DNA of 63,614 nt, counting the filler, from Aduncisulcus paluster (lineage: Eukaryota), in the NCBI GenBank assembly GCA_024181965.1. It is 11 parts of 11 records of this genome, joined end to end, with 100 filler letters (N's around TTAATTAATTAA, not from the genome) between each part and the next. Parts side by side here need not be neighbours in the genome. Positions count along the whole stretch, not along the records: positions 56,780 to 60,419 come from BQXS01010102.1; 10 more parts are not named here. The stretch is one strand, 5' to 3'. Below, piece by piece: positions 6,298-60,519 of this stretch (positions are counted from its first letter, which is position 1; every line of letters begins with the position of its first letter). The notes beneath the pieces were generated by a model. That model was not told where the DNA came from. It saw only the letters and a program-made list of their open reading frames with translations, and ran no database searches. A program made the translations under genes and the position numbers.

Positions 6298-7700
6298 ATG
6301 GTGGTCACTCGCACAAACGAAACCGGTCGCAGACATCGGCCGAAACACAATTCCAAGAAGACTCGACCCTTCGCTTGAGAGACTCCATCCGATCCATCGC
6401 CATCCTCGAGAAAATGAACTTCATGTTTTCCAGGAAGTGATGCGTTGCAAAGATGTGTCTATGATTGAATATGGCGATCTTCAGACCCTTCTTGGGTATT
6501 GTGGAGTGTATCGTAATGGAATGTTTCAAGGGTTCTCCTCACCAATGTTGACATATGACTTGACGATCTCCCCAACCATCTCCAAACTTTCTGATCTTGA
6601 TGATCCCATACTATCCGCTCACCTCATTACACGTGACGTACTATCCTCGATTGCAATCGATGAATTCTCGATTGTCCCACTCGAACCAAATGTCGTTACA
6701 CGTGTTTCCATCTCGTTTTCAGAGTACATTCGTTTCGATCGTCTTTTTTGTTCTTTACGCTCTTATCCGTTTTTCTTGGCATTATCATCATAGTATATAC
6801 CAAGAACGTGCCAAACACCGATATCCTGAGAGCTGCGAACAATGTATCCTCATAGCACACATTCGTTGAGGCTTCTCTTCCAAAAAAACAATCATTTCCA
6901 TTTATACGAGGATAAGGCCCTTGCCTTTCGTCGTTTCGGATCGATCCACTCCCTTTCTGTCATTCACACTGNNNNNNNNNNNNNNNNNNNNTTCAGAGTA
7001 CATTCGTTTCGATCGTCTTTTTTGTTCTTTACGCTCTTATCCGTTTTTCTTGGCATTATCATCATAGTATATACCAAGAACGTGCCAAACACCGATATCC
7101 TGAGAGCTGCGAACAATGTATCCTCATAGCACACATTCGTTGAGGCTTCTCTTCCAAAAAAACAATCATTTCCATTTATACGAGGATAAGGCCCTTGCCT
7201 TTCGTCGTTTCGGATCGATCCACTCCCTTTCTGTCATTCACACTGAAGACTATCTTGAACACATGCTTGTTTGGAATTCCAACAATCCAACCACTGCCGA
7301 GTGGTGGCCAGTCAACTATGTCCTCGATCCATGGAGCGACTATATGATTGCTGACACTGACAATGATGTCACTTATGGCACCTCAGATATAATAAGTCGA
7401 ATCAAGCCTTCTTTCCAGGCACCACCAATCGAAAATGGTGATTTACACCATGCTTTCATCTCTACGGTGGTATGTTGTATCATTTTCCTTATAGATGCAT
7501 TTTTTCTTGGTGTGTTGTCGTACAAGAATGTTGATATTGTTACGATATCAATCAGAAAGAGACTGATCACCTTTTGGAACATGATATCGGGGTACTCTCA
7601 GTATCTAGATTTAAATGATGCAAATCCGTTCCCATATTCTATATATATAAATGGACGGGCGCGAAATTACTCGGGAGTAACTTCCTCCGGTAAAAAGTAG
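6298..7700 (+). pseudogene. Frameshifted putative membrane protein gene (pseudogene or indel errors)
   Basis: Segments MVVTRTNETGRRHRPK / ...HPRENELHVFQEVMRCK / FFTLLSVFLGIIIIVY (TM) / ...AFISTVVCCIIFLIDAFFLGVL (TM) join with single-base shifts near 6368, 6745 and 6845. About 6718-6971 is duplicated after the N20 gap. Confidence 0.45.
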
Positions 7701-8966: not shown

Positions 8967-9066
8967 NNNNNNNNNNNNNNNNNNNNNNNNNNNNNNNNNN
9001 NNNNNNNNNNTTAATTAATTAANNNNNNNNNNNNNNNNNNNNNNNNNNNNNNNNNNNNNNNNNNNN
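8967..9066. other. Artificial contig linker N44-TTAATTAATTAA-N44 (also 15739-15838, 22765-22864, 27422-27521, 34663-34762, 42664-42763, 50113-50212, 53153-53252, 56680-56779, 60420-60519)
   Basis: Identical 100-nt structure each time, with six-frame stop codons. Adjacency across linkers is not biological. Confidence 0.98.
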
Positions 9067-14586: not shown

Positions 14587-15838
14587 TTTTTGAAGTTTAT
14601 TTCTTAAATATATATATAAATATATCTTAGGTTACGTGATTTGTGAGATTTATGGTTTGTAGATGGTTGTTAACGTGATTTAGAGAATATGAAGCTTGAT
14701 TCGAAGTAATTTGGAAGTAATTTGGAAGTAATTTGGTAGTAATTCGTGAAATTATTATTTCAAAAGGTTCTGCTCCCTTTTTCTGTCCTATCCTTAATTC
14801 CGCGATCCAGTGAAGTGAAGTTACCAGTTCCACCGACTGTGCGTATGAATTACAAAGTAATATTTATGTATTTATATTTATTTATATTTTTATAGTTTAT
14901 GTATATATCCAATATGTTCGAGTTATTGGATATTATTATTGACTGATAGATGATATAGATCGACATCTCTCACTTAACTTTATTGGTTGGAGACATGGAC
15001 AATTGCAAAGGAGAAATATTCCAAGAAGACACGCACAGAAGACACGCACAGAAGAATCGGAGATAAGAGTTGAATATATGCCACAGTGCCCGGTTTGATG
15101 ATATGTTTGACTTGAACAATGAGCAATTTGTGTGCAGATATGTTCCATGATAATCGAATCATTCCAATTCTCATGGAACTCCACGTTGTCACTGTTGATT
15201 ACATTGACAGAGAATGCATCTTCGATTTTCCTTGATGATGCCAATTTGTCGCTGTTCTTTTCTCCTTCAGTATTCTACGATAGGTGCAAACAACGATAGT
15301 TTCTTGGACTCGAATGATGGAGTATATTGTGATTGTGATTGTGATTGTGATTGTGCGATTAATTTATGATTAATTAGTTCCATGTTTTTACTTCATGAAT
15401 GTATGTTTTTATAACAACAATAATAATAATACAGAATAGAGAACAATTCCAAACAACGCTCCAAAGTTCAATAATAATGTCTCATCGTGAAGGAGAGTAT
15501 GCAACTTGTTCAACAATCAACCATCAACCATTAACTTCAAGCTTGAAATGAACTCTTCTCTCAATTGTTCCATTAACTTGATGGCATTAAGAATAAAAAT
15601 AAAATATTACATCAGAATCTTTCCACATCACTCACTGACTCTGATCCCAACCTTCCTCATGCTCAACACCAGCAACACCACATCTCATTCCTTCAATGGT
15701 TCCAACAGAGCCATCCTTTGGTGTGTCCTCTGTGAGTANNNNNNNNNNNNNNNNNNNNNNNNNNNNNNNNNNNNNNNNNNNNTTAATTAATTAANNNNNN
15801 NNNNNNNNNNNNNNNNNNNNNNNNNNNNNNNNNNNNNN

Positions 15839-18800
15839 CGCCCTCTCTCCTTTTCTTTCCCTTCTTTCCCTTCCTCTTCTTTCCCTTCCTTCTGCTCTGA
15901 CTTTTTCCATGGTTCGACAAAGAAATCATTAAGACCAGCGCCCAAAGATCTCACAACACCTACGGGATTCCCTAATAAAGAGGTACTTCCAATGATAGTG
16001 AGAATCTGACGTTTTAAGATATGCATATAATGTTGAGAAAGTCTGGCAACCAATGTCATGGGAGCTAATAATTGGTTAGATATATGGAAACCGGCAAGAG
16101 TGACGATTCCTTCCCGAATTTCAATCATCGAGGATGCAAAGTGAACGATCGACGCAAGCCCAGCAGGTATAACACCGCTCCAAGCCCGTTTGTTGGTGCT
16201 TGTCGAAATATCTAATTGAACTCTTACAACATTCACTGCCAATGTCTTGAATAAAATAGCATCTTCTGCTGCGTTATTATTATTATTGTTGTTTTTGCCA
16301 CTATCGTTGTTTCCATTATCCTCAACAATACTTGTATCTTCGAGGGCAATTCTATTGGATTCACCAGGTAGAAGTCCCTTCCTAAGTTTTGGAATGTAAT
16401 GGGAAGGCAATAGAGCAGGAGCAGTTCCAATATACTCCTTTAACATGGACAATAGACGGAAAATATAGTCAGCAGAAATGCGTAGATGTATGTCAGGGGT
16501 TGATATGATGCATTCTTCCACAACAATGACCTCATCTCTGAAAGCAGTCGAAAGGAGATTGTGCGGATCATCACTTGTGGCGAGAGAGGAAGTACAACTC
16601 TGAGTGTTGGGAGGAGGAGAATTTGAAGGTAAGTGCATGACACAACGAACAGACATACAGTGCTTCTCACCTTCTTTTGGAGTTAATTTGACAGGGACAA
16701 TGTACCGATTAACATAAGTGCATTGGTCATCGATTTGGGCATTTTGAATACCAGCTTCGAGACAAATGGCACCTTTCCCATGTGTGACGTCAAGAGATAT
16801 CTGAGTCATCGAGAAATGAGTCATCTCAAACGTTGAGGTGAACACTGAAAAAGATACTTGAGGAACTGAAAACTTAAGATCACCAGCAAAATTCATAGGA
16901 TAGTCGGATTTATCCATATTTTCATAGGCCTTTCCATCAGCATGTGACAGAGCAGCTCTGATAGAATCAATTGTACAAGCATTTGGATTGCTTGATCCAG
17001 ATATTGTTGATCCAGGACTTGTGCTCACTGTAGAAGCCTGAGAGAGAGTATCAGATGAGAAGGAAGAAGAACCCGTAAAGGAAGAAGAACCCGTGAAGGA
17101 AGAAGAAGAAGTCACATCAGAAACATGATTATCGTCTTTGATATCATCTTTATCTCCCTGTACATGACCCTTTTGACCCTTTTTCTGTTGTTGTTTAGCT
17201 AATTTTCGTTCGAGCCGTTGAGCTTTCCTGTCCTTTTTCTTCTGAAGTCTCTGTTCCTTTTTAAGGGAATTTGAGGACAAAGATGTAGATTTTTGCCGAG
17301 AACGAGGAATAAAATCTTTTTCCTCAACAAAAACCATCCTTTTCCCAGCGATGACAAGACATAGAATAATGGCGAGTTTATGAACTATTTTACCGGTCCC
17401 CTTTTCTTTATAACTAAATTTTACACTTTTTCTGCCATTATTCTTCCCATTCGTAGCATCCATCACATCAATAATCACTGGGGAAGTCATGCCAGATATG
17501 AATATTGCAGCCTTAGGAGAGTCAATTGAAGGATCAGGGAAAGTGAAGAAGCGTTTGGACTGGGGTTTTGTAGTAAACACATTATAAGAGGCGATCTCAT
17601 CAGATAAATGGAAGTTCTTCCCTTCAAGTCGCAGTTTCTTATTATTTGGAACATTTCTAACTGTAATAATGTCTTCTTTAAGCTCTTCAGGCAGTACTTG
17701 CCAGACATACACGTTGTGACTTGAGATATTGACAATACACATAGGCAAATGTGTTGCACTACAGCGTGTAACAGAAACGTTCACTCCTCCATTGTCAGTT
17801 TTTCTTACATTGGCACGCATAAAAGCACGAATAGAGAAAGTGGGTGATGTTATCGGTTCTCCTCCCTTATTCAAAGTTCCAAACCGTTTTTTATCTTCAA
17901 ATTGTCGAACATGAACAGCTGAAGTAGCCCCCAATATTTTATCATCGTCAGAAACAGCAGCAGATTCATGTTGTGGTATAGAATAGCTATCACAACCAAC
18001 GGGAACATTATTCATATCACATATCAAGTAAGTTTCTCCAACAGACTCCAGTGAAAGGGGTCCACTGAATCTCCACGGGGCGTATTTCCTCACATCTGCG
18101 GCCGCTGTTGCTCTTTCTCCAAACCTCATCCACATCACAAGTTCTTCGGATACTTCTTGTCTATGTGATCTATGAGTTGTTTTCACAGGTTGTTCCATGA
18201 AAACAAGGGAAATAACTTCAGTCTTTCCGGGATCAATTTGTTGGATGTCAACATGTTCAAAAATACATGTCCCTTTCTTGCTCCAGCCCACACAGATTGA
18301 CAAAGGTAACGCTGAAGTGTTGGAGCATGTAAAAAGATGATCGATAGAAAAAATAGAGAATAAAGAATCGGGGGAAGCAGAAATACTAATGCTAATTGNN
18401 NNNNNNNNNNNNNNNNNNCAAGTAAGTTTCTCCAACAGACTCCAGTGAAAGGGGTCCACTGAATCTCCACGGGGCGTATTTCCTCACATCTGCGGCCGCT
18501 GTTGCTCTTTCTCCAAACCTCATCCACATCACAAGTTCTTCGGATACTTCTTGTCTATGTGATCTATGAGTTGTTTTCACAGGTTGTTCCATGAAAACAA
18601 GGGAAATAACTTCAGTCTTTCCGGGATCAATTTGTTGGATGTCAACATGTTCAAAAATACATGTCCCTTTCTTTCTCCAGCCCACACAGATTGACAAAGG
18701 TAACGCTGAAGTGTTGGAGCATGTAAAAAGATGATCGATAGAAAAAATAGAGAATAAAGAATCGGGGGAAGCAGAAATACTAATGCTAATTGGTAAATAC

Positions 18801-22764: not shown

Positions 22765-22864
22765 NNNNNNNNNNNNNNNNNNNNNNNNNNNNNNNNNNNN
22801 NNNNNNNNTTAATTAATTAANNNNNNNNNNNNNNNNNNNNNNNNNNNNNNNNNNNNNNNNNNNN

Positions 22865-27023: not shown

Positions 27024-27521
27024 CTTAATTCAATCAAAATAGCTCGATTGGCAGTTCAGCTGCAAAACATGCTATCATTCACAATTATTATATTTCAATG
27101 GCAATGTATTATGTGGTAAATGTTGATATAATTATCAAAACCTCATAATATTGTCAATACAATTATATCAAAACAATCATCTCTTTTGACTCGGGGGGGT
27201 TTATTCAATTGTGATTAGCATATTCTAATAAAGATTTATGGTGTTCGTATTGTTCCAAATCACCCAATGCGGAATAAAGTATATATTAGGAAAGTGCACA
27301 CACACACACAATCATCTCTTTTGAACCCATTTCTTATGATATGAATAGTATTCCATGAGTTTTAAATGTTAAAGCTAATGTTTTATCTTTTTCAGTTGTC
27401 TTGGATTCATATTACTCTCTANNNNNNNNNNNNNNNNNNNNNNNNNNNNNNNNNNNNNNNNNNNNTTAATTAATTAANNNNNNNNNNNNNNNNNNNNNNN
27501 NNNNNNNNNNNNNNNNNNNNN

Positions 27522-31605: not shown

Positions 31606-32726
31606 ATGAGAATTCTTCACATTATGCTCTACTCCTTCACTGCTCGTTCCCACAAGCCGTCTGAGATATCGGTTAGGGCCGGCGAGGAAGTTTGGGTTGT
31701 GACGAAAGCAGGAGATGGCTGGACTCTCGTATGCCGTGGTGACGGAGAAATGGGAGTTGTTCCCACAGATTATCTTGGGAAACAGGTAAAGAAGAAGAAG
31801 AAGTCGCCAAAGACTGCTGATGCAAAGCATGTTGATGGAACTGAGGGTGAGAAGAGAGAGAAGAACGAGAAGAGAGAGAAGAAAGAGAAGAGAGAGGAAG
31901 TGAGTGGTAAAACAAAACATAAGGATTCTAAAAAAGAGCTGCGATCGAAAGATTCTTCCAAACATGACATTCCACATGCTTCTCTCGATGGTTCTGATTC
32001 TGAGAAAGATGATAGAAAAGTAGACAAACAACCATTGTCTCCAAATGCTGGCAGTGAGGGTGAAGATATGGATTCCAAGACTTCTCCTCCTCTTCTCAAA
32101 CATATAGATATGGACAGTGGCAGACCAACAACAAAGCCACACTCAGACAGTCTCAAGGGCTCAGATATTCATTCGGAGACTGATGGTATCGATCATACTC
32201 CCCCTCTCGAAGCAATGTCTCCTTCCTCAACACAGCTCATTGATAGCNNNNNNNNNNNNNNNNNNNNGATGGTTCTGATTCTGAGAAAGATGATAGAAAA
32301 GTAGACAAACAACCATTGTCTCCAAATGCTGGCAGTGAGGGTGAAGATATGGATTCCAAGACTTCTCCTCCTCTTCTCAAACATATAGATATGGACAGTG
32401 GCAGACCAACAACAAAGCCACACTCAGACAGTCTCAAGGGCTCAGATATTCATTCGGAGACTGATGGTATCGATCATACTCCCCCTCTCGAAGCAATGTC
32501 TCCTTCCTCAACACAGCTCATTGATAGCGAGCATATCATTGATAGTGATCCTCACATGGATGATCCTGCACCAGAAATATCTCCTCTCAAATCCAGATTT
32601 AAACGAAGGAATGATGAAATATTGCACGAGTCCGGAATGATGAAATATTGCACGAGTCCGGATTTGGCCAAAATCAAGATATTTTTGCAATATATATATA
32701 AATATAATAAAATAATTTTCTATTAA
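31606..32726 (+). CDS. SH3-domain protein with disordered tail (interrupted by N20 gap and duplications)
   Basis: MLYSFTARSHKPSEISVRAGEEVWVVTKAGDGWTLVCRGDGEMGVVPTDYL is an SH3 signature. Confidence 0.75.
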
Positions 32727-34493: not shown

Positions 34494-34762
34494 AGAGTTA
34501 GCTCAAAAGGAACAGACGATTGCAGAAGAGAAGAAAGCCAAAGAGGAACTTGCTATTGAGTTGGCAGAGAAAGAAAAAGAGAAAGAAGAAAGTGTGAAAC
34601 AATTGCGCATTATGGAGTCCAAGATGACTCCTTGTGAAAGAAGAGTTTGCAACCTTACAAGANNNNNNNNNNNNNNNNNNNNNNNNNNNNNNNNNNNNNN
34701 NNNNNNTTAATTAATTAANNNNNNNNNNNNNNNNNNNNNNNNNNNNNNNNNNNNNNNNNNNN

Positions 34763-42663: not shown

Positions 42664-42763
42664 NNNNNNNNNNNNNNNNNNNNNNNNNNNNNNNNNNNNN
42701 NNNNNNNTTAATTAATTAANNNNNNNNNNNNNNNNNNNNNNNNNNNNNNNNNNNNNNNNNNNN

Positions 42764-49756: not shown

Positions 49757-50212
49757 AAATACGATACATCTGTTCTAAAATAATAAATTTTGAAAAGAAA
49801 TACAATAGGTTGAAATTTGTCTTTTATTGTCAATATCATGTTTTATTCACCATTTTTTTTAACTCCAAATCTATTGCAAACGCTACAAAAGCTCCTTGAT
49901 TGATGTCTGAGCGTATTCCTATATTGTTAAATAGAAGTAATATATTATTATTAATTCAAGCAGAAAAAAAAAATATAAAATGGTTTCCCCAACATTCTTT
50001 TCCTGAGAAAATAATCATATGAATGAATACTTTTTATTCTTGTCATGGGGAAAGAATTGAAGCAAAAAAACGTGGATCCAACACTGTTTCGAGATCTTCA
50101 TTTAAAAGAAAGNNNNNNNNNNNNNNNNNNNNNNNNNNNNNNNNNNNNNNNNNNNNTTAATTAATTAANNNNNNNNNNNNNNNNNNNNNNNNNNNNNNNN
50201 NNNNNNNNNNNN

Positions 50213-53152: not shown

Positions 53153-53252
53153 NNNNNNNNNNNNNNNNNNNNNNNNNNNNNNNNNNNNNNNNNNNNTTAA
53201 TTAATTAANNNNNNNNNNNNNNNNNNNNNNNNNNNNNNNNNNNNNNNNNNNN

Positions 53253-55707: not shown

Positions 55708-56199
55708 AACGTAAATGTTTTGTATTTCTTGACAATATGAAGAAGAGNNNNNNNNNNNNNNNNNNNNGAAGGAGGAATACGAAGGCCAATTCACTGAATT
55801 GTGTGAGTTCATTTCCAGTGTTGAGGAGGTAAAACCCCTTATCACGGGACCTGTTGTTCATTTCAACAATTTCACTGATAAAAACATTAATTTCATTGAA
55901 GACTTGGACTGAAACGTAAATGTTTTGTATTTCTTGACAATATGAAGAAGAGTGAAGTGGAGACCGTTGAGTTCTTTCCATATATATTTTATGGGGAAGT
56001 TCAATCATAATCGCTTTCTACACTGTTTTCTTATTCCATCTCGTGTTTTCCCCAGTATTCTTTTCCTATAAGTCTTCTGTTTCGTTGTTTGGCAAGTTCA
56101 GATTATGCAATTCTTTTTCCATTTTCTTCTTAAATTAATCCCTCTCCGTCTGATTGGTTGCAATACATACCATAAACATTATCAATAAAGGCCTTTTCG

Positions 56200-56552
56200 A
56201 CATGTTCAGCTTTCAGTCTTGGCAGATGTCTCAACAACAAAGATTAAACCATGTATATTTTAGCAAATTCCTCACCCTCATCTCTCTCAACTTCTCTACT
56301 CTTTTCAAGATCACATTTGTTTGTTTCCAACAAGTATAATTTGAATGTCAGAAGAGGCATATTTCCTGACTTCTCCGAGCCAAAGTGGGAAGATGTTCGA
56401 AAGTAGCATGCCTAGTGATATCGTACACAACTATAACTCCTTCAACACGTCCAAAATAACAACGAGTAAGAGGTTTGAAAGTAATCTGTCCAGAACTATC
56501 CCAAATATTGAGTGTGAATTGACTTCTTCTGTTATTCAATAGTTTTTGTCAT
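56200..56552 (-). pseudogene. Frameshifted Rab GTPase
   Basis: LNIWDSSGQ..F..LTRCYF.RVEGVIVVYDITR..TFEHLP|WLGEVRKYA..IILVGNK|CDLEKSREVERDEGEEFAK|...ETSAKT, joined by small insertions. Confidence 0.7.
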
Positions 56553-56779
56553 CTGAAATTTTTAATCGATAAACTAAATATCATAGCTCACAATATTATA
56601 TTGTTGTCAAGAAAGAAAAGAGAATTTGAATCTTGTTCACGATCAAAGTTTGAAAACAAGAAACTATGGATATGTCAAGNNNNNNNNNNNNNNNNNNNNN
56701 NNNNNNNNNNNNNNNNNNNNNNNTTAATTAATTAANNNNNNNNNNNNNNNNNNNNNNNNNNNNNNNNNNNNNNNNNNNN

Positions 56780-57430
56780 CATGATAGAGTCACGGCCGCA
56801 GTCAACAAGGCTCTTCGTTTCACTGGTCATATGACGAACACGGAAGACCTATCCGTGACATTGACAACCGAAAACCCCCGGACGATCCCAAGGAGCGACA
56901 TTACATCAACCAAAACACAAGGCAAAAACGCTGGCTCCTATGTCTTTGACGTGGTGATCACAGGGGGATGGAGGGGTAGAGCAGCACCCCAGACAAGACT
57001 AGGTCAAGCTGCTATGAGAGAAGCCACAACCAAGTTGAGGAAGTACGATGGACTTAATTTATCATACTCATTTGTCCCTCTTGCTTTTGAAACATCTGGT
57101 TTGATGGCTCAGGAAACTGCAACTTTCTTTAGAGAGCATTTCTCCTACAGAGTTGCAAGAAGAACCCTCTTTGAGATAGCGACGATCATCGCAAGGGGGG
57201 AACACTATGCTTGGTCCAAGTCATTGAATGCGACCGTTATCGGTTCTTCAACGATACAGGCCGAGGAAATCACTGCTTTTTATGAGCAATGATTGACATA
57301 ACTTAAACACAGGGACATATTAGAGCTCAGACGACCCATGGGGAACCTCAAAGTTGAAGAAAAGGAAGAAGGAACGCCGAACCCAAGATCCCATCAGGTA
57401 GAGTAGAATTTATCTCTGAATAAACGCGAC
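56780..57430 (+). mobile_element. 3' end of an RLE-type (CRE/NeSL/R2-group) non-LTR retrotransposon: endonuclease domain 56780-57292 plus 3' UTR
   Basis: Frame open from the contig edge: HDRV...TE...RSD...FDVVI...KLRKY...FVPLAFETSG, the (R)HD / E / PD-like / D / KxxKY / P...G motif order of restriction-like endonucleases. 3' UTR ends in a hairpin and AATAAA (57419-57424). Confidence 0.8.
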
Positions 57431-57474
57431 GTCTCATAAGCTAAAGGTCGTGAGTTCAAGCCTCACCAGAAGCA
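57431..57474 (+). tRNA. 3' half (about positions 30-73) of elongator tRNA-Met(CAU); 5' half absent
   Basis: GT-CTCATAA-GCTAA-AGGTC-GTGAG-TTCAAGC-CTCAC-CAGAAGC-A. Perfect T-arm and CAT anticodon at 57435-57437, but no upstream GCTTCTG acceptor strand, D-arm or TTA anticodon-stem partner. Confidence 0.85.
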
Positions 57475-57475
57475 G

Positions 57476-57481
57476 TTTTTT
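57476..57481 (+). terminator. Pol III terminator (T6) of the tRNA-Met gene
   Basis: TTTTTT begins 2 nt after discriminator A73; no encoded CCA. Confidence 0.75.
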
Positions 57482-57701
57482 CTGTTCCTTTCAGGTGACC
57501 CTAAGCGTCATTTCAGTAGTTTAATGATATCTCTGAGGATATTGGTAGCACAAATTTATTGATTTTTATCATCTAGTTCTGAAATAGTTCTATATGCCAC
57601 ACAGCAGGAATACATACAGTTCATACATATGAATACCACATATAAAAATTTAAACTCGATATCGATACAATTTTGATCAAATTACATTACAATTTAAACG
57701 T

Positions 57702-58304
57702 TTACCATTTGGCTTCTTTAACCAATGGAATAAATTTTGCGAGTTGAGTTTCGTAACCATCTTCATCATTATCATCACAGTACAAGGCAGGACAGACCAG
57801 AGTAGCTCCCAGTCTCTTGAAATGCCCAACACACTTCTTCATTCCTCCATTAAACACTTCATAATCGGAACATCCAAGACCAAGACAAGCAATCTTCACT
57901 TTGGAGAAACTACCATCTTTTTGTTCGGATAACCATTCGTAGAATACTTCACCAGATACAGGAACGTTTCCATGACCAGTGGTTGAACAGACAAAAACAA
58001 ATTTACCACCATGGAGAAGAGATTTATAGTCAAACTCAGATACCTCAGACGGATCATCAACACCAAGCTCGGAAGCAATTTCTTCAGCGGCAGCCTCAGA
58101 ATTACCAGTTTCAGTCGCAAAAAAGACTTTGATGGATCCATCATCATCAGTTTTACCTACTTCCTTCATTTCTTTTTCAACTTTTTCTTCTTCTTCTATC
58201 TTTTCTCCTTCTTCTCCTCCTCCCTTCTTCTTCTTCTTCTTCTTCTTCTTCTTCTTCCTTTTGGAATCTGGAAAGAACTTCTTTCTCTCGAGTTTCCTTA
58301 TCAA
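57702..58304 (-). CDS. Flavodoxin domain (CPR/MioC-type), probably the C-terminal domain of the upstream PFOR
   Basis: IKVFFATETGNSE, FVCSTTGHGNVP, IACLGLGCSDYEVFNGG, LGAT. Preceded by a K/E low-complexity linker; the ORF begins within 10 nt of the PFOR stop. Confidence 0.88.
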   Translation of the reverse strand: MIRKLERKKFFPDSKRKKKKKKKKKKKGGGEEGEKIEEEEKVEKEMKEVGKTDDDGSIKVFFATETGNSEAAAEEIASELGVDDPSEVSEFDYKSLLHGGKFVFVCSTTGHGNVPVSGEVFYEWLSEQKDGSFSKVKIACLGLGCSDYEVFNGGMKKCVGHFKRLGATLVCPALYCDDNDEDGYETQLAKFIPLVKEAKW

Positions 58305-58312
58305 CTCCCTTT

Positions 58313-60357
58313 TTAACTGGACTTTGGAGACATATTAATGATAGCAGAGGCCATTGGAACCTTCACCGTTCCCCTTGGAGCTTGACCACGGACAATAGCT
58401 GGGCGTTTCACACTGAAAGTAGGAGAAGATATCTCACTGATAATGGGTCTCTCATCAGGAGCAGGAAGACGGTAATCAATCCGCTCTTCAGGGACCTTGA
58501 AGGAATCACGGAGCTCAACAAGTTTCAGGTATCTTTGAAGCATATCCTTGATCAACAAGGTGTCGAGTCTCTTGGCAACCTCAGGTTTGGTCTGAATCAA
58601 AGAGTTGAAACGAGCTTGTGTCTCCAGGAACTCCATAGGATCCTTGCTTGGAGCCTTGGAATCAATAGTCAACGGATTCTTTCCTTTCTCGACAAGAGCT
58701 GGGTTGTAACGGTACAAAAGCCAGTATCCAGTTTCAACAGCAAGTTTCTGAGAGTGAGGACCGTAAGCGAGACCCTTACGAATACCATGCTCGATACAAG
58801 GAGAATAAGCGAGAACAATGGAAGGCCCATCGTGAGCATCGGCCTCAGCGATAGCCTTGAGGAATTGGCTTTGGTTGGCGTTGAGAGCTACACTGGCAAC
58901 ATAAACATTGGGATNNNNNNNNNNNNNNNNNNNNTCCAGTTTCAACAGCAAGTTTCTGAGAGTGAGGACCGTAAGCGAGACCCTTACGAATACCATGCTC
59001 GATACAAGGAGAATAAGCGAGAACAATGGAAGGCCCATCGTGAGCATCGGCCTCAGCGATAGCCTTGAGGAATTGGCTTTGGTTGGCGTTGAGAGCTACA
59101 CTGGCAACATAAACATTGGGATATGTCATGGCAATCTTCAAAATATCCTTCTTGACAACCTCTTTACCTCCAGCAGCGAATCTGGCAACAGCTCCAGCAG
59201 GAGTGGCCTTACTTCTTTGTCCACCAGTGTTACTGTAGACCTCAGTATCACAGATAAGAATGTTCACATTCTCTCCAGAAGCAAGAACATGGTCAACACC
59301 ACCGAAACCAATATCATAAGCCCAACCATCTCCACCAACAATCCATTGAGACTTCATGCCCAACTGGTCAAGGGAATCAATTCTGTTGAACTCCTTGAAT
59401 TCAGGTATCTTGATGTGAATAGTATCTTTGTCATCTTCAGTGAGTTTCTTAAGCTCTTCTTTGATGTTATCGGCAGCAATACGAGATTCTTCCTTGTCAC
59501 CATGAACTTCGAACCATTTCTTAAGAGATCCATGCAACTTATCACTAAGAACACCTTCGCTTTCATCACGGCTCAAAATAGTTGACACCAAACCAGCAAC
59601 ACGAGCACGACGTTGCTTTGTGGCCAAATGCATACCAAAACCGAACTCAGCATTATCTTCAAAGAGAGAGTTGGCCCAGGCTGGACCTTGACCCTTGTGG
59701 TTGGTAGACCACACACCGAATGGATAAGCACCAAGAGTAACAGACTAAGTAGAATAAAAATAAACAAACAGCGGTTAGAAATAAATCGAATGAAGAAAAT
59801 ATGGAAAAATTTAATTAAATATAAGATAAACATACACTACAACCAATGGCATTGGCAATCATGAGGTTTTCTCCAAACATGTTAGCAAGGTTCTTGATCT
59901 GGGCCATTTCCTGACAACCACCACAAGCAAGATGGAACTCAAGAAGAGGTTTCTGAAGACTGGCTCCAACAGGAAGTTTCTTCAACTTGTCGGGGATCAA
60001 ATGGCCTCTGTTCTCCAAGGATCTCACATATTCGTATTCATCACTCTTGACATCGAGCACATCTCCAATCAACTCCATTTTGAGAGTTCCCTTCTCACGG
60101 GTGGGACACATCATGACACAGTTGGAACACCCAGTACAATCATATGGAGACACAGAGATGACAAACTTCTGAGTGCCTGTTGCAGAAGCAAACTTCTTAT
60201 TCTTGATATTGGCAGAATCCATGGTGGCAGGGGCACTCTTGGTCTCATCCTCAGTCAAAAGGAAAGGTCTGATAACAGCATGAGGACAGGCAATAGCACA
60301 TGCACCACATTGGATACAAGTATCGGCATTCCAGACAGGGATTTTGATGGCAGTGTA
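58313..60357 (-). CDS. PFOR: Pyruvate:ferredoxin/flavodoxin oxidoreductase, C-terminal part; exons 60357-59836 and 59744-58313 (duplicated block across N20 gap 58915-58934); 5'-truncated
   Basis: CIQCGACAIACP and CTGCSNCVMMCP ferredoxin motifs, ACGGC, PAWANSLFEDNAEFGFG, GGDGWAYDIGFGG, DTEVYSNTGGQ, YSPCIEHG. Intron 59835-59745 GTATGT...TTCTAAC...TAG; upstream acceptor TAG ending at 60358. Confidence 0.96.
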
Positions 60358-60519
60358 CTAGCTGAGCAAATTTACTTGAAAAAGGATGAACTGTGTAATC
60401 TAAAAATAGACTTCGAGAANNNNNNNNNNNNNNNNNNNNNNNNNNNNNNNNNNNNNNNNNNNNTTAATTAATTAANNNNNNNNNNNNNNNNNNNNNNNNN
60501 NNNNNNNNNNNNNNNNNNN

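Follow-up and report, generated by a model that had tools for sequence, protein, structure and literature searches.

An R2-like retrotransposon joined to an elongator tRNA-Met gene in Aduncisulcus paluster: a candidate for site-specific insertion

Introduction

R2, the retrotransposon without long terminal repeats (non-LTR) of the 28S ribosomal DNA (rDNA) site, moves by target-primed reverse transcription (TPRT). The titles of structures 8gh6 and 9dou describe R2 at the start of this reaction. Utopia, NeSL and CRE/SLACS, which are likewise elements with a restriction-like endonuclease (RLE) and occur in protists and animals, reside in multicopy small RNA genes (U2 small nuclear RNA and spliced leader), targets that differ from the one considered here. 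Four RLE clades are mostly target-specific, and three families are specific for tRNA genes: NeSL-1_TV for tRNA-Pro and the planarian LIN15_SM and LIN25_SM for tRNA-Arg and tRNA-Glu, respectively (Kojima & Jurka 2015, PMC4640811). Here we describe a locus at positions 56780-57481 of a 63.6-kb stretch of draft genome sequence (hereafter the window) from the free-living fornicate Aduncisulcus paluster, in which the 3' end of an RLE-type retrotransposon is joined in sense to the 3' half of an elongator tRNA-Met gene. An earlier note on this DNA had singled out the locus as a candidate tRNA-targeting retroelement and knew of no such target in metamonads; the three published families do not bear out this novelty. 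The analysis reported below favours, on balance, a site-specific insertion of a low-copy R2-like element into an elongator tRNA-Met(CAU) gene, in sense orientation, between tRNA positions 29 and 30.

Several other mobile elements settle in or near tRNA genes. These genes are named among the targets of non-LTR elements (PMC5035012, PMC8869645), and the anticodon-stem region within them is reported as an independently chosen target of Dada DNA transposons (PMC8869645). Dada elements are found at fixed sites inside tRNA genes, as the element described here would be, but they use a transposase and not a reverse transcriptase (RT); the likeness is one of convergent target choice only. For Dictyostelium TRE5/TRE3 and yeast Ty1/Ty3, tRNA genes are safe landing marks in compact genomes (PMC5006619), yet these elements integrate beside the genes, upstream or downstream by tens of bp, through the RNA polymerase III (Pol III) machinery, with no fixed base inside the gene and no RLE.

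Results

The junction between element and tRNA gene

The contig that holds both the element and the tRNA half occupies 56780-60419 of the window, and its start falls within the element. Read on the plus strand, as are all features of the locus, it opens with the 3' part of the element's open reading frame (ORF; 56780-57292), whose translation gives the last 170 aa of the element protein (P0001), comprising an RLE domain and a C-terminal tail. The 3' untranslated region (UTR) of the element follows, 138 nt in length (57293-57430), and ends AATAAACGCGAC without a poly(A) tail. Directly behind it, with neither spacer nor poly(A), stands the 3' part of an elongator tRNA-Met(CAT) gene, positions 30-73 (57431-57474; Rfam RF00005), followed by a G and a T6 run (57475-57481), a Pol III-type terminator of the tRNA gene, and no CCA. 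The junction, 57430/57431, lies between tRNA positions 29 and 30, two bases 5' of the anticodon loop and thus within the anticodon stem's 5' strand. The earlier note's description of this end of the element, from the length and last bases of the UTR to the spacer-free sense join and the G30-A73 half with its T6 run, is borne out in each respect.

The tRNA half contains two anticodon-stem bases, a 7-nt CTCATAA loop that gives the anticodon CAT, the 3' strand of the stem, the variable loop, the T arm, the 3' acceptor strand and the discriminator A. A T54 and a G1:C72-type acceptor end mark an elongator rather than an initiator tRNA-Met; here the T loop begins with T54 and the acceptor end, as read off the bases, is of the G1:C72 type. 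The match to RF00005 is 5'-truncated, covering model positions 29-71 of 71 with 27 bits (E 2e-4, 60 bases searched), and falls below the gathering score of 29, as expected for a partial tRNA. ARAGORN reported 0 tRNA genes in the whole window, and an Rfam search of 56000-58500 returned nothing relevant; the half tRNA scores only when the search starts at the break. Since the terminator is present and CCA is absent, the piece is gene DNA, and a retro-copied mature tRNA was rejected. Two other candidates were likewise set aside: the primer-binding site of an LTR element, because the tRNA piece is in sense and not complementary, and a split or permuted tRNA gene, because the break at 29|30 falls within a stem and intact genes exist.

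Evidence for intact genes and for the exact position of the break came from contigs of three runs placed on 56780-57900, X1 (DNA) and X2 and X3 (RNA-like). X1 supplied 44 contigs, 5 of which fit in part only; they are built from reads by an assembler different from that of the draft, and the depths quoted below are rough per-contig values and not copy numbers. X2 and X3 contigs fall only on 57701-57900, in a flavodoxin gene. In X1, the tRNA half occurs in two left-hand contexts, either the element UTR or a normal D arm and 5' strand of the anticodon stem. The latter was read from a single loose end before 57431, whose ten letters give the end of the D loop with A21, the GAGC strand of the D stem, G26 and positions 27-29 (GTA). 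That the same 3' half stands behind a canonical 5' context places the break exactly at 29|30 and demonstrates that intact tRNA-Met genes exist. The intact gene reads GTA before G30, where the earlier note had predicted TTA. Within the window, this 10-letter 5' context has 1 match with one mismatch, compared to 1.22 expected by chance. On the right-hand side, the tRNA copies in X1 have three contexts, namely the flank seen in the window and two others that diverge from it after 57480 and 57483.

The junction itself is crossed by an X1 contig (57223-57459; record 4, 237 nt, depth 2376, 0 mismatches). It ends at 57459, a point at which a tRNA core shared with other copies would force a branch in the de Bruijn graph. 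This read-built contig argues against an assembly chimera, in which the element end and the tRNA half would not be joined in the organism's DNA at all. Although the draft does contain artefacts, with duplicates at 5/5 of its 20-N gaps in the window, and the contig begins inside the element, we consider a chimera extremely unlikely.

No X1 contig in 56780-57900 leaves the 3' UTR at 57430 for a different flank, so that the unrelated 3' flanks that would have spoken against the earlier note's reading did not appear. The same result bears on an alternative in which the element itself brings the tRNA-Met 3' half with it, either as a 3' transduction from a master copy sitting in a tRNA-Met gene or as a tRNA-derived tail; the half would then be uninformative on landing sites. 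In favour of this, every UTR copy seen in X1 leads into the tRNA half; the flanks of the contigs with the tRNA half diverge right behind the T run, at 57480 and 57483; and a 3' junction alone cannot separate a target from a constant 3' part of the element. Nevertheless, the half has the same sequence as the corresponding 3' part of the intact tRNA-Met genes in X1, begins exactly where the intact 5' context is replaced, and ends in the gene's own G and T6 rather than in CCA or poly(A). A carried half would, moreover, still presuppose that an element once entered a tRNA-Met gene at 29|30, and we regard this alternative as quite unlikely.

The end of the element also bears on a secondary join, in which an element copy and a tRNA-Met gene close by were brought together by deletion or ectopic recombination, with loss of the original 3' flank of the former and the 5' part of the latter. 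Such an event would suit the fact that the element is seen from one side only, as well as the strong fragmentation of the assembly (25,863 contigs, N50 4.6 kb; PMC9933649). The end lies 138 nt past the stop codon, just behind AATAAA, and looks like a natural 3' end, while sense orientation together with a clean end would be a coincidence if produced by rearrangement; a secondary join is thus very unlikely. The UTR folds no better than shuffled sequences (z +1.11; 171/200 shuffles fold at least as well).

The element and its protein

The reading frame of P0001 is open across 56780-57292, with a TGA stop at 57290-57292, and the guanine-plus-cytosine (GC) content of this part is 47% versus 39% window-wide. 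P0001 alone matched 0 Pfam families, and phmmer searches with it against the PDB gave no relevant match. Its first 132 residues are identical (100% over 132 aa) to residues 607-738 of P0002 (ADUPG1_011333), a 738-aa protein from a 2217-nt contig listed by NCBI as 'hypothetical protein, partial [Aduncisulcus paluster]'. P0002 contains an RT domain (PF00078, residues 71-288, E 1.7e-19) with an intact FADD motif and a C-x3-C-x7-H-x3-C knuckle that immediately precedes the first residue of the window ORF, resulting in the domain order RT, CCHC knuckle and then the nuclease domain encoded in the window. The RT and knuckle that the earlier note had expected upstream of the nuclease are therefore present in one ORF with it, as seen on the P0002 contig, which is a different contig from that in the window. 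Among solved structures, those closest to P0002 are R2 proteins, which fill the best 5 of 10 rows with E between 2.6e-14 and 1.4e-8; human L1 ORF2p reaches an E of 3e-3 only.

The RLE assignment was supported by two alignments. In the first (A1), made with RT-linked relatives, P33, D40, D57, K85, Y89, P100 and G107 are invariant, and the SD, DVVI, K..KY and FVP...G motifs of P0001 map to invariant columns. The second (A2) is a profile of the CCHC and nuclease parts of four sequences, P0002, P0004, P0005 and P0007, in which the H of the HD motif (H28) is invariant, as are the second C and the GH of the knuckle, which align with the knuckle of Bombyx R2 (R2Bm). This profile matches the knuckle-plus-RLE region of R2Bm (8gh6_A, residues 934-1041) with an E of 4.7e-10, and the C-terminal RLE regions of R2 proteins (R2Bm and three others) are the best 5 of 12 rows of the search. 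In the alignment, rpD of the profile corresponds to KPD of R2Bm, D.tivS to DVQVVS and K..kY to EKRNKY; the D of KPD is the residue mutated to A in chain 8ibw. The PD motif reads SD in P0001, with S in place of P, and D40, D57, K85 and Y89 are retained. The RLE motifs that the earlier note had recognised are present, four of them and the H of HD on invariant columns, and, judged by its encoded protein, the element is an RLE-type (R2-like) non-LTR retrotransposon.

An AlphaFold (AF2) model of P0001 was poor, with a predicted local distance difference test (pLDDT) value of 45.3, and was excluded as evidence. A Foldseek search with this model gave no match at E<=0.001; the best match was R2 8iby_C (E 0.06), and other PD-(D/E)xK nucleases were also among the weak rows. 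Outside A. paluster, relatives in two large protein libraries show 22-24% identity at best, and the ESM Atlas yielded generic RVT_1 clusters only.

Copy number and other copies

Depth in X1 is 2420-2592 over the element body, similar to the 2376 of the contig that crosses the junction. The contig carrying the flank of the locus (57454-57730) has a depth of 1187, two allelic 60-mers at 57797-57856 have depths of 1277 and 1397, and a homozygous contig has 2771. We read these values as an element present in about two haplotype-equivalents. Each of the two joins the tRNA half, and only one continues into the flank seen in the window. At this depth the family is not high-copy and the contig break is not due to copy number, contrary to the earlier note, which had seen the break as fitting a multicopy family. 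Summed depths of the tRNA bins were 15080 and 7521 and gave no consistent split into counts of intact and occupied genes.

The low copy number is what an unspecific or weakly specific insertion that fell only once in a tRNA-Met gene would produce, the two haplotype-equivalents being alleles or a duplicate of one event. Two further observations fit such a one-off event. First, neighbouring non-coding DNA has sharply diverged second versions, visible as a loose end before 57701 in X1, X2 and X3, making plausible an allelic flank that shares no 31-mer with that of the window. Second, a fragment of the element family, P0006, lies in a context that does not look like a tRNA gene. On the other hand, tRNA genes make up well under 0.1% of the 29.4-Mb genome (a rough estimate; genome size from PMC9933649), rendering a random insertion there very unlikely; we estimate the chance of a random landing in any tRNA gene at well under 1 in 1000. 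The exact sense junction is, in addition, as in the known target-specific RLE families (PMC4640811). A one-off insertion is therefore an unlikely explanation, and site-specific insertion into the tRNA-Met gene remains the reading that we favour.

The gene model of P0006 (ADUPG1_012915), which lies outside the window, holds an internal RT fragment with 132/166 identical residues, in which 23 aa of the FADD region are deleted, next to a hAT dimerisation domain; the model is probably a chimera over nested transposon debris. A self-BLAST of 56780-57481 within the window gave no second copy, with chance matches of <=27 nt only. Searches for contigs elsewhere were similarly negative: with P0002, metagenome contigs gave 57 pattern matches with 0 confirmed, and with the 34-nt tRNA stretch they gave 0 matches; prokaryote-genome contigs gave 140 pattern matches and viral contigs 241, with 0 confirmed in either.

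Assembly context and neighbouring genes

The A. paluster draft genome, assembled from 69.9 Gbp of Illumina reads, has a size of 29.4 Mb and a GC content of 39.1% (PMC9933649); that of the window is 39.2%. The window strings together separate contigs of the draft, with ten N44-TTAATTAATTAA-N44 linkers and five 20-N gaps, so that adjacency across a linker is meaningless. The linker TTAATTAATTAA has stop codons in all six frames. From a listing of N runs, the linkers are at 8967-9066, 15739-15838, 22765-22864, 27422-27521, 34663-34762, 42664-42763, 50113-50212, 53153-53252, 56680-56779 and 60420-60519. The 20-N gaps, at 6972-6991, 18399-18418, 32248-32267, 55748-55767 and 58915-58934, are each flanked by direct duplicates of 185-374 nt, four of them exact and one 373/374. 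These are unmerged scaffolding overlaps that give false tandem duplications within genes, including the end of an Hsp70-like ORF and an ORF resembling pyruvate:ferredoxin oxidoreductase (PFOR).

Downstream of the locus, on the minus strand, a flavodoxin-domain ORF (57702-58304; PF00258, E 2.6e-26) lies directly downstream of a PFOR-like ORF with a thiamine pyrophosphate (TPP) domain (58313-59714; PF02775) on the same strand; together they may form a single gene, either fused or split by an intron. The flavodoxin gene also has a second version, with 2 base differences over 57701-57900 (roughly 50:50 single-nucleotide polymorphisms at 57738 and 57826 in X1), which departs sharply from the window immediately beyond the stop codon, from 57701 leftwards. 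It is the version seen in the RNA-like runs X3 and X2. The two versions may be paralogues, or alleles whose non-coding DNA is very divergent. In the preceding contig, a minus-strand ORF at 56348-56539 was recognised by eye as resembling a fragment of a small Rab-type GTPase.

Discussion

The type of the element, its exact junction, the tRNA-gene origin of its flank, the presence of intact tRNA-Met copies and the low copy number are shown by the data. The position of the nick, the use of TPRT and above all the site-specificity of insertion are what we infer, the last from one or two junctions, the tiny chance of a random insertion into a tRNA gene, and precedent. By analogy with R2, the element protein would bind the tRNA-Met gene, and its RLE domain would nick the antisense (bottom) strand opposite 29|30. 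The freed 3'-OH would then prime reverse transcription at the last base of the element RNA; priming directly at the last base of the UTR would explain a join without poly(A) or filler. The tRNA gene would be split, its 5' part separated by the whole element from the 3' part with the T arm, and the loss of the split gene would be covered by intact tRNA-Met copies. The last bases of the UTR are unlike tRNA positions 20-29, hence annealing of a read-through transcript is not indicated. Sense-strand T runs within the element (T4 at 57085 and T5 at 57277) would keep Pol III read-through from the tRNA promoter from yielding a full-length RNA, suggesting that the element has a promoter of its own.

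Several points weigh against site-specific insertion or limit the evidence for it. First, the X1 contig that crosses the junction has 29 letters on the tRNA side, 2 fewer than a 31-letter bridging criterion. Second, X1 is possibly the read set behind the assembly; if X1 consists of the assembly's own reads, a chimera made by the assembler is excluded, though the sample is not independent. Third, the 5' junction of the element, with the 5' part of the tRNA and the 5' end of the element, lies outside the sequence seen. Fourth, P0002 is N-terminally partial and does not include the N-terminal DNA-binding region that would confer specificity, which in R2 consists of zinc finger(s) and a Myb domain. 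Fifth, only one or two junction haplotypes are present, both of which may go back to one insertion, as alleles or through duplication, and the contig depth from which they were counted is a rough proxy and not a copy number. Lastly, the dead RT fragment P0006, seen as a protein model alone, adjoins a hAT dimerisation domain with no sign of a tRNA.

Among described systems, R2 has the same RT-CCHC-RLE order and is the closest solved relative for both the RT and the CCHC-plus-RLE region. R2 (structures 8gh6, 9dou and 9nl3) likewise makes a precise 3' junction without poly(A), and the mechanism is likely the same TPRT. The two differ in that R2 occupies a 28S rDNA site, whereas the flank of the A. 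paluster element is tRNA-Met 30-73, which sets it apart from R2 proper. The distance from R2-like relatives is also large, given the low identity and the SD that stands for the PD of R2. The published tRNA-specific RLE families, which fall in the NeSL clade, resemble the locus in that an RLE non-LTR element adjoins the sequence of a tRNA gene, and in the strategy of settling in small RNA genes that are multicopy; compared by target gene only, they differ from it in the tRNA concerned, here tRNA-Met, and in that about two junction copies are present here. For NeSL-1_TV, we presume from Repbase naming that the host is Trichomonas vaginalis, itself a metamonad. That host is not spelled out in PMC4640811. 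A literature search found no paper on tRNA-Met as the target of a non-LTR element, although some papers that mention both terms were unchecked. GilM of Giardia is an RLE element known from a fornicate relative. It is the RLE outgroup in PMC4640811. The kind of element described here is therefore already known, and its target and lineage are probably new.

Going further, the element may belong to a deep-branching, unsampled RLE lineage that recognises the anticodon-stem region of the elongator tRNA-Met gene, nicks exactly opposite 29|30 and is maintained in each genome at only one or two copies. It would then be a convergent case of tRNA-gene targeting that arose in Metamonada, and its TPRT enzyme would be a new natural one with sequence specificity. 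We consider this wider proposal possible, if short of probable.

Site-specific RLE enzymes are of current interest as gene-insertion tools (PMC13188248), and a very divergent RLE enzyme with a short, defined DNA target would, if the specificity is true, be a useful comparison to R2. With one or two copies, and only the 3' junction in view, the locus is for now a lead rather than a demonstrated system. If the element is indeed specific for its site, tRNA-Met would join the short list of tRNA genes used by RLE retrotransposons, and tRNA-gene targeting would extend to a free-living fornicate with a compact genome. It would also be relevant to the view of early non-LTR elements as target-specific (PMC4640811).

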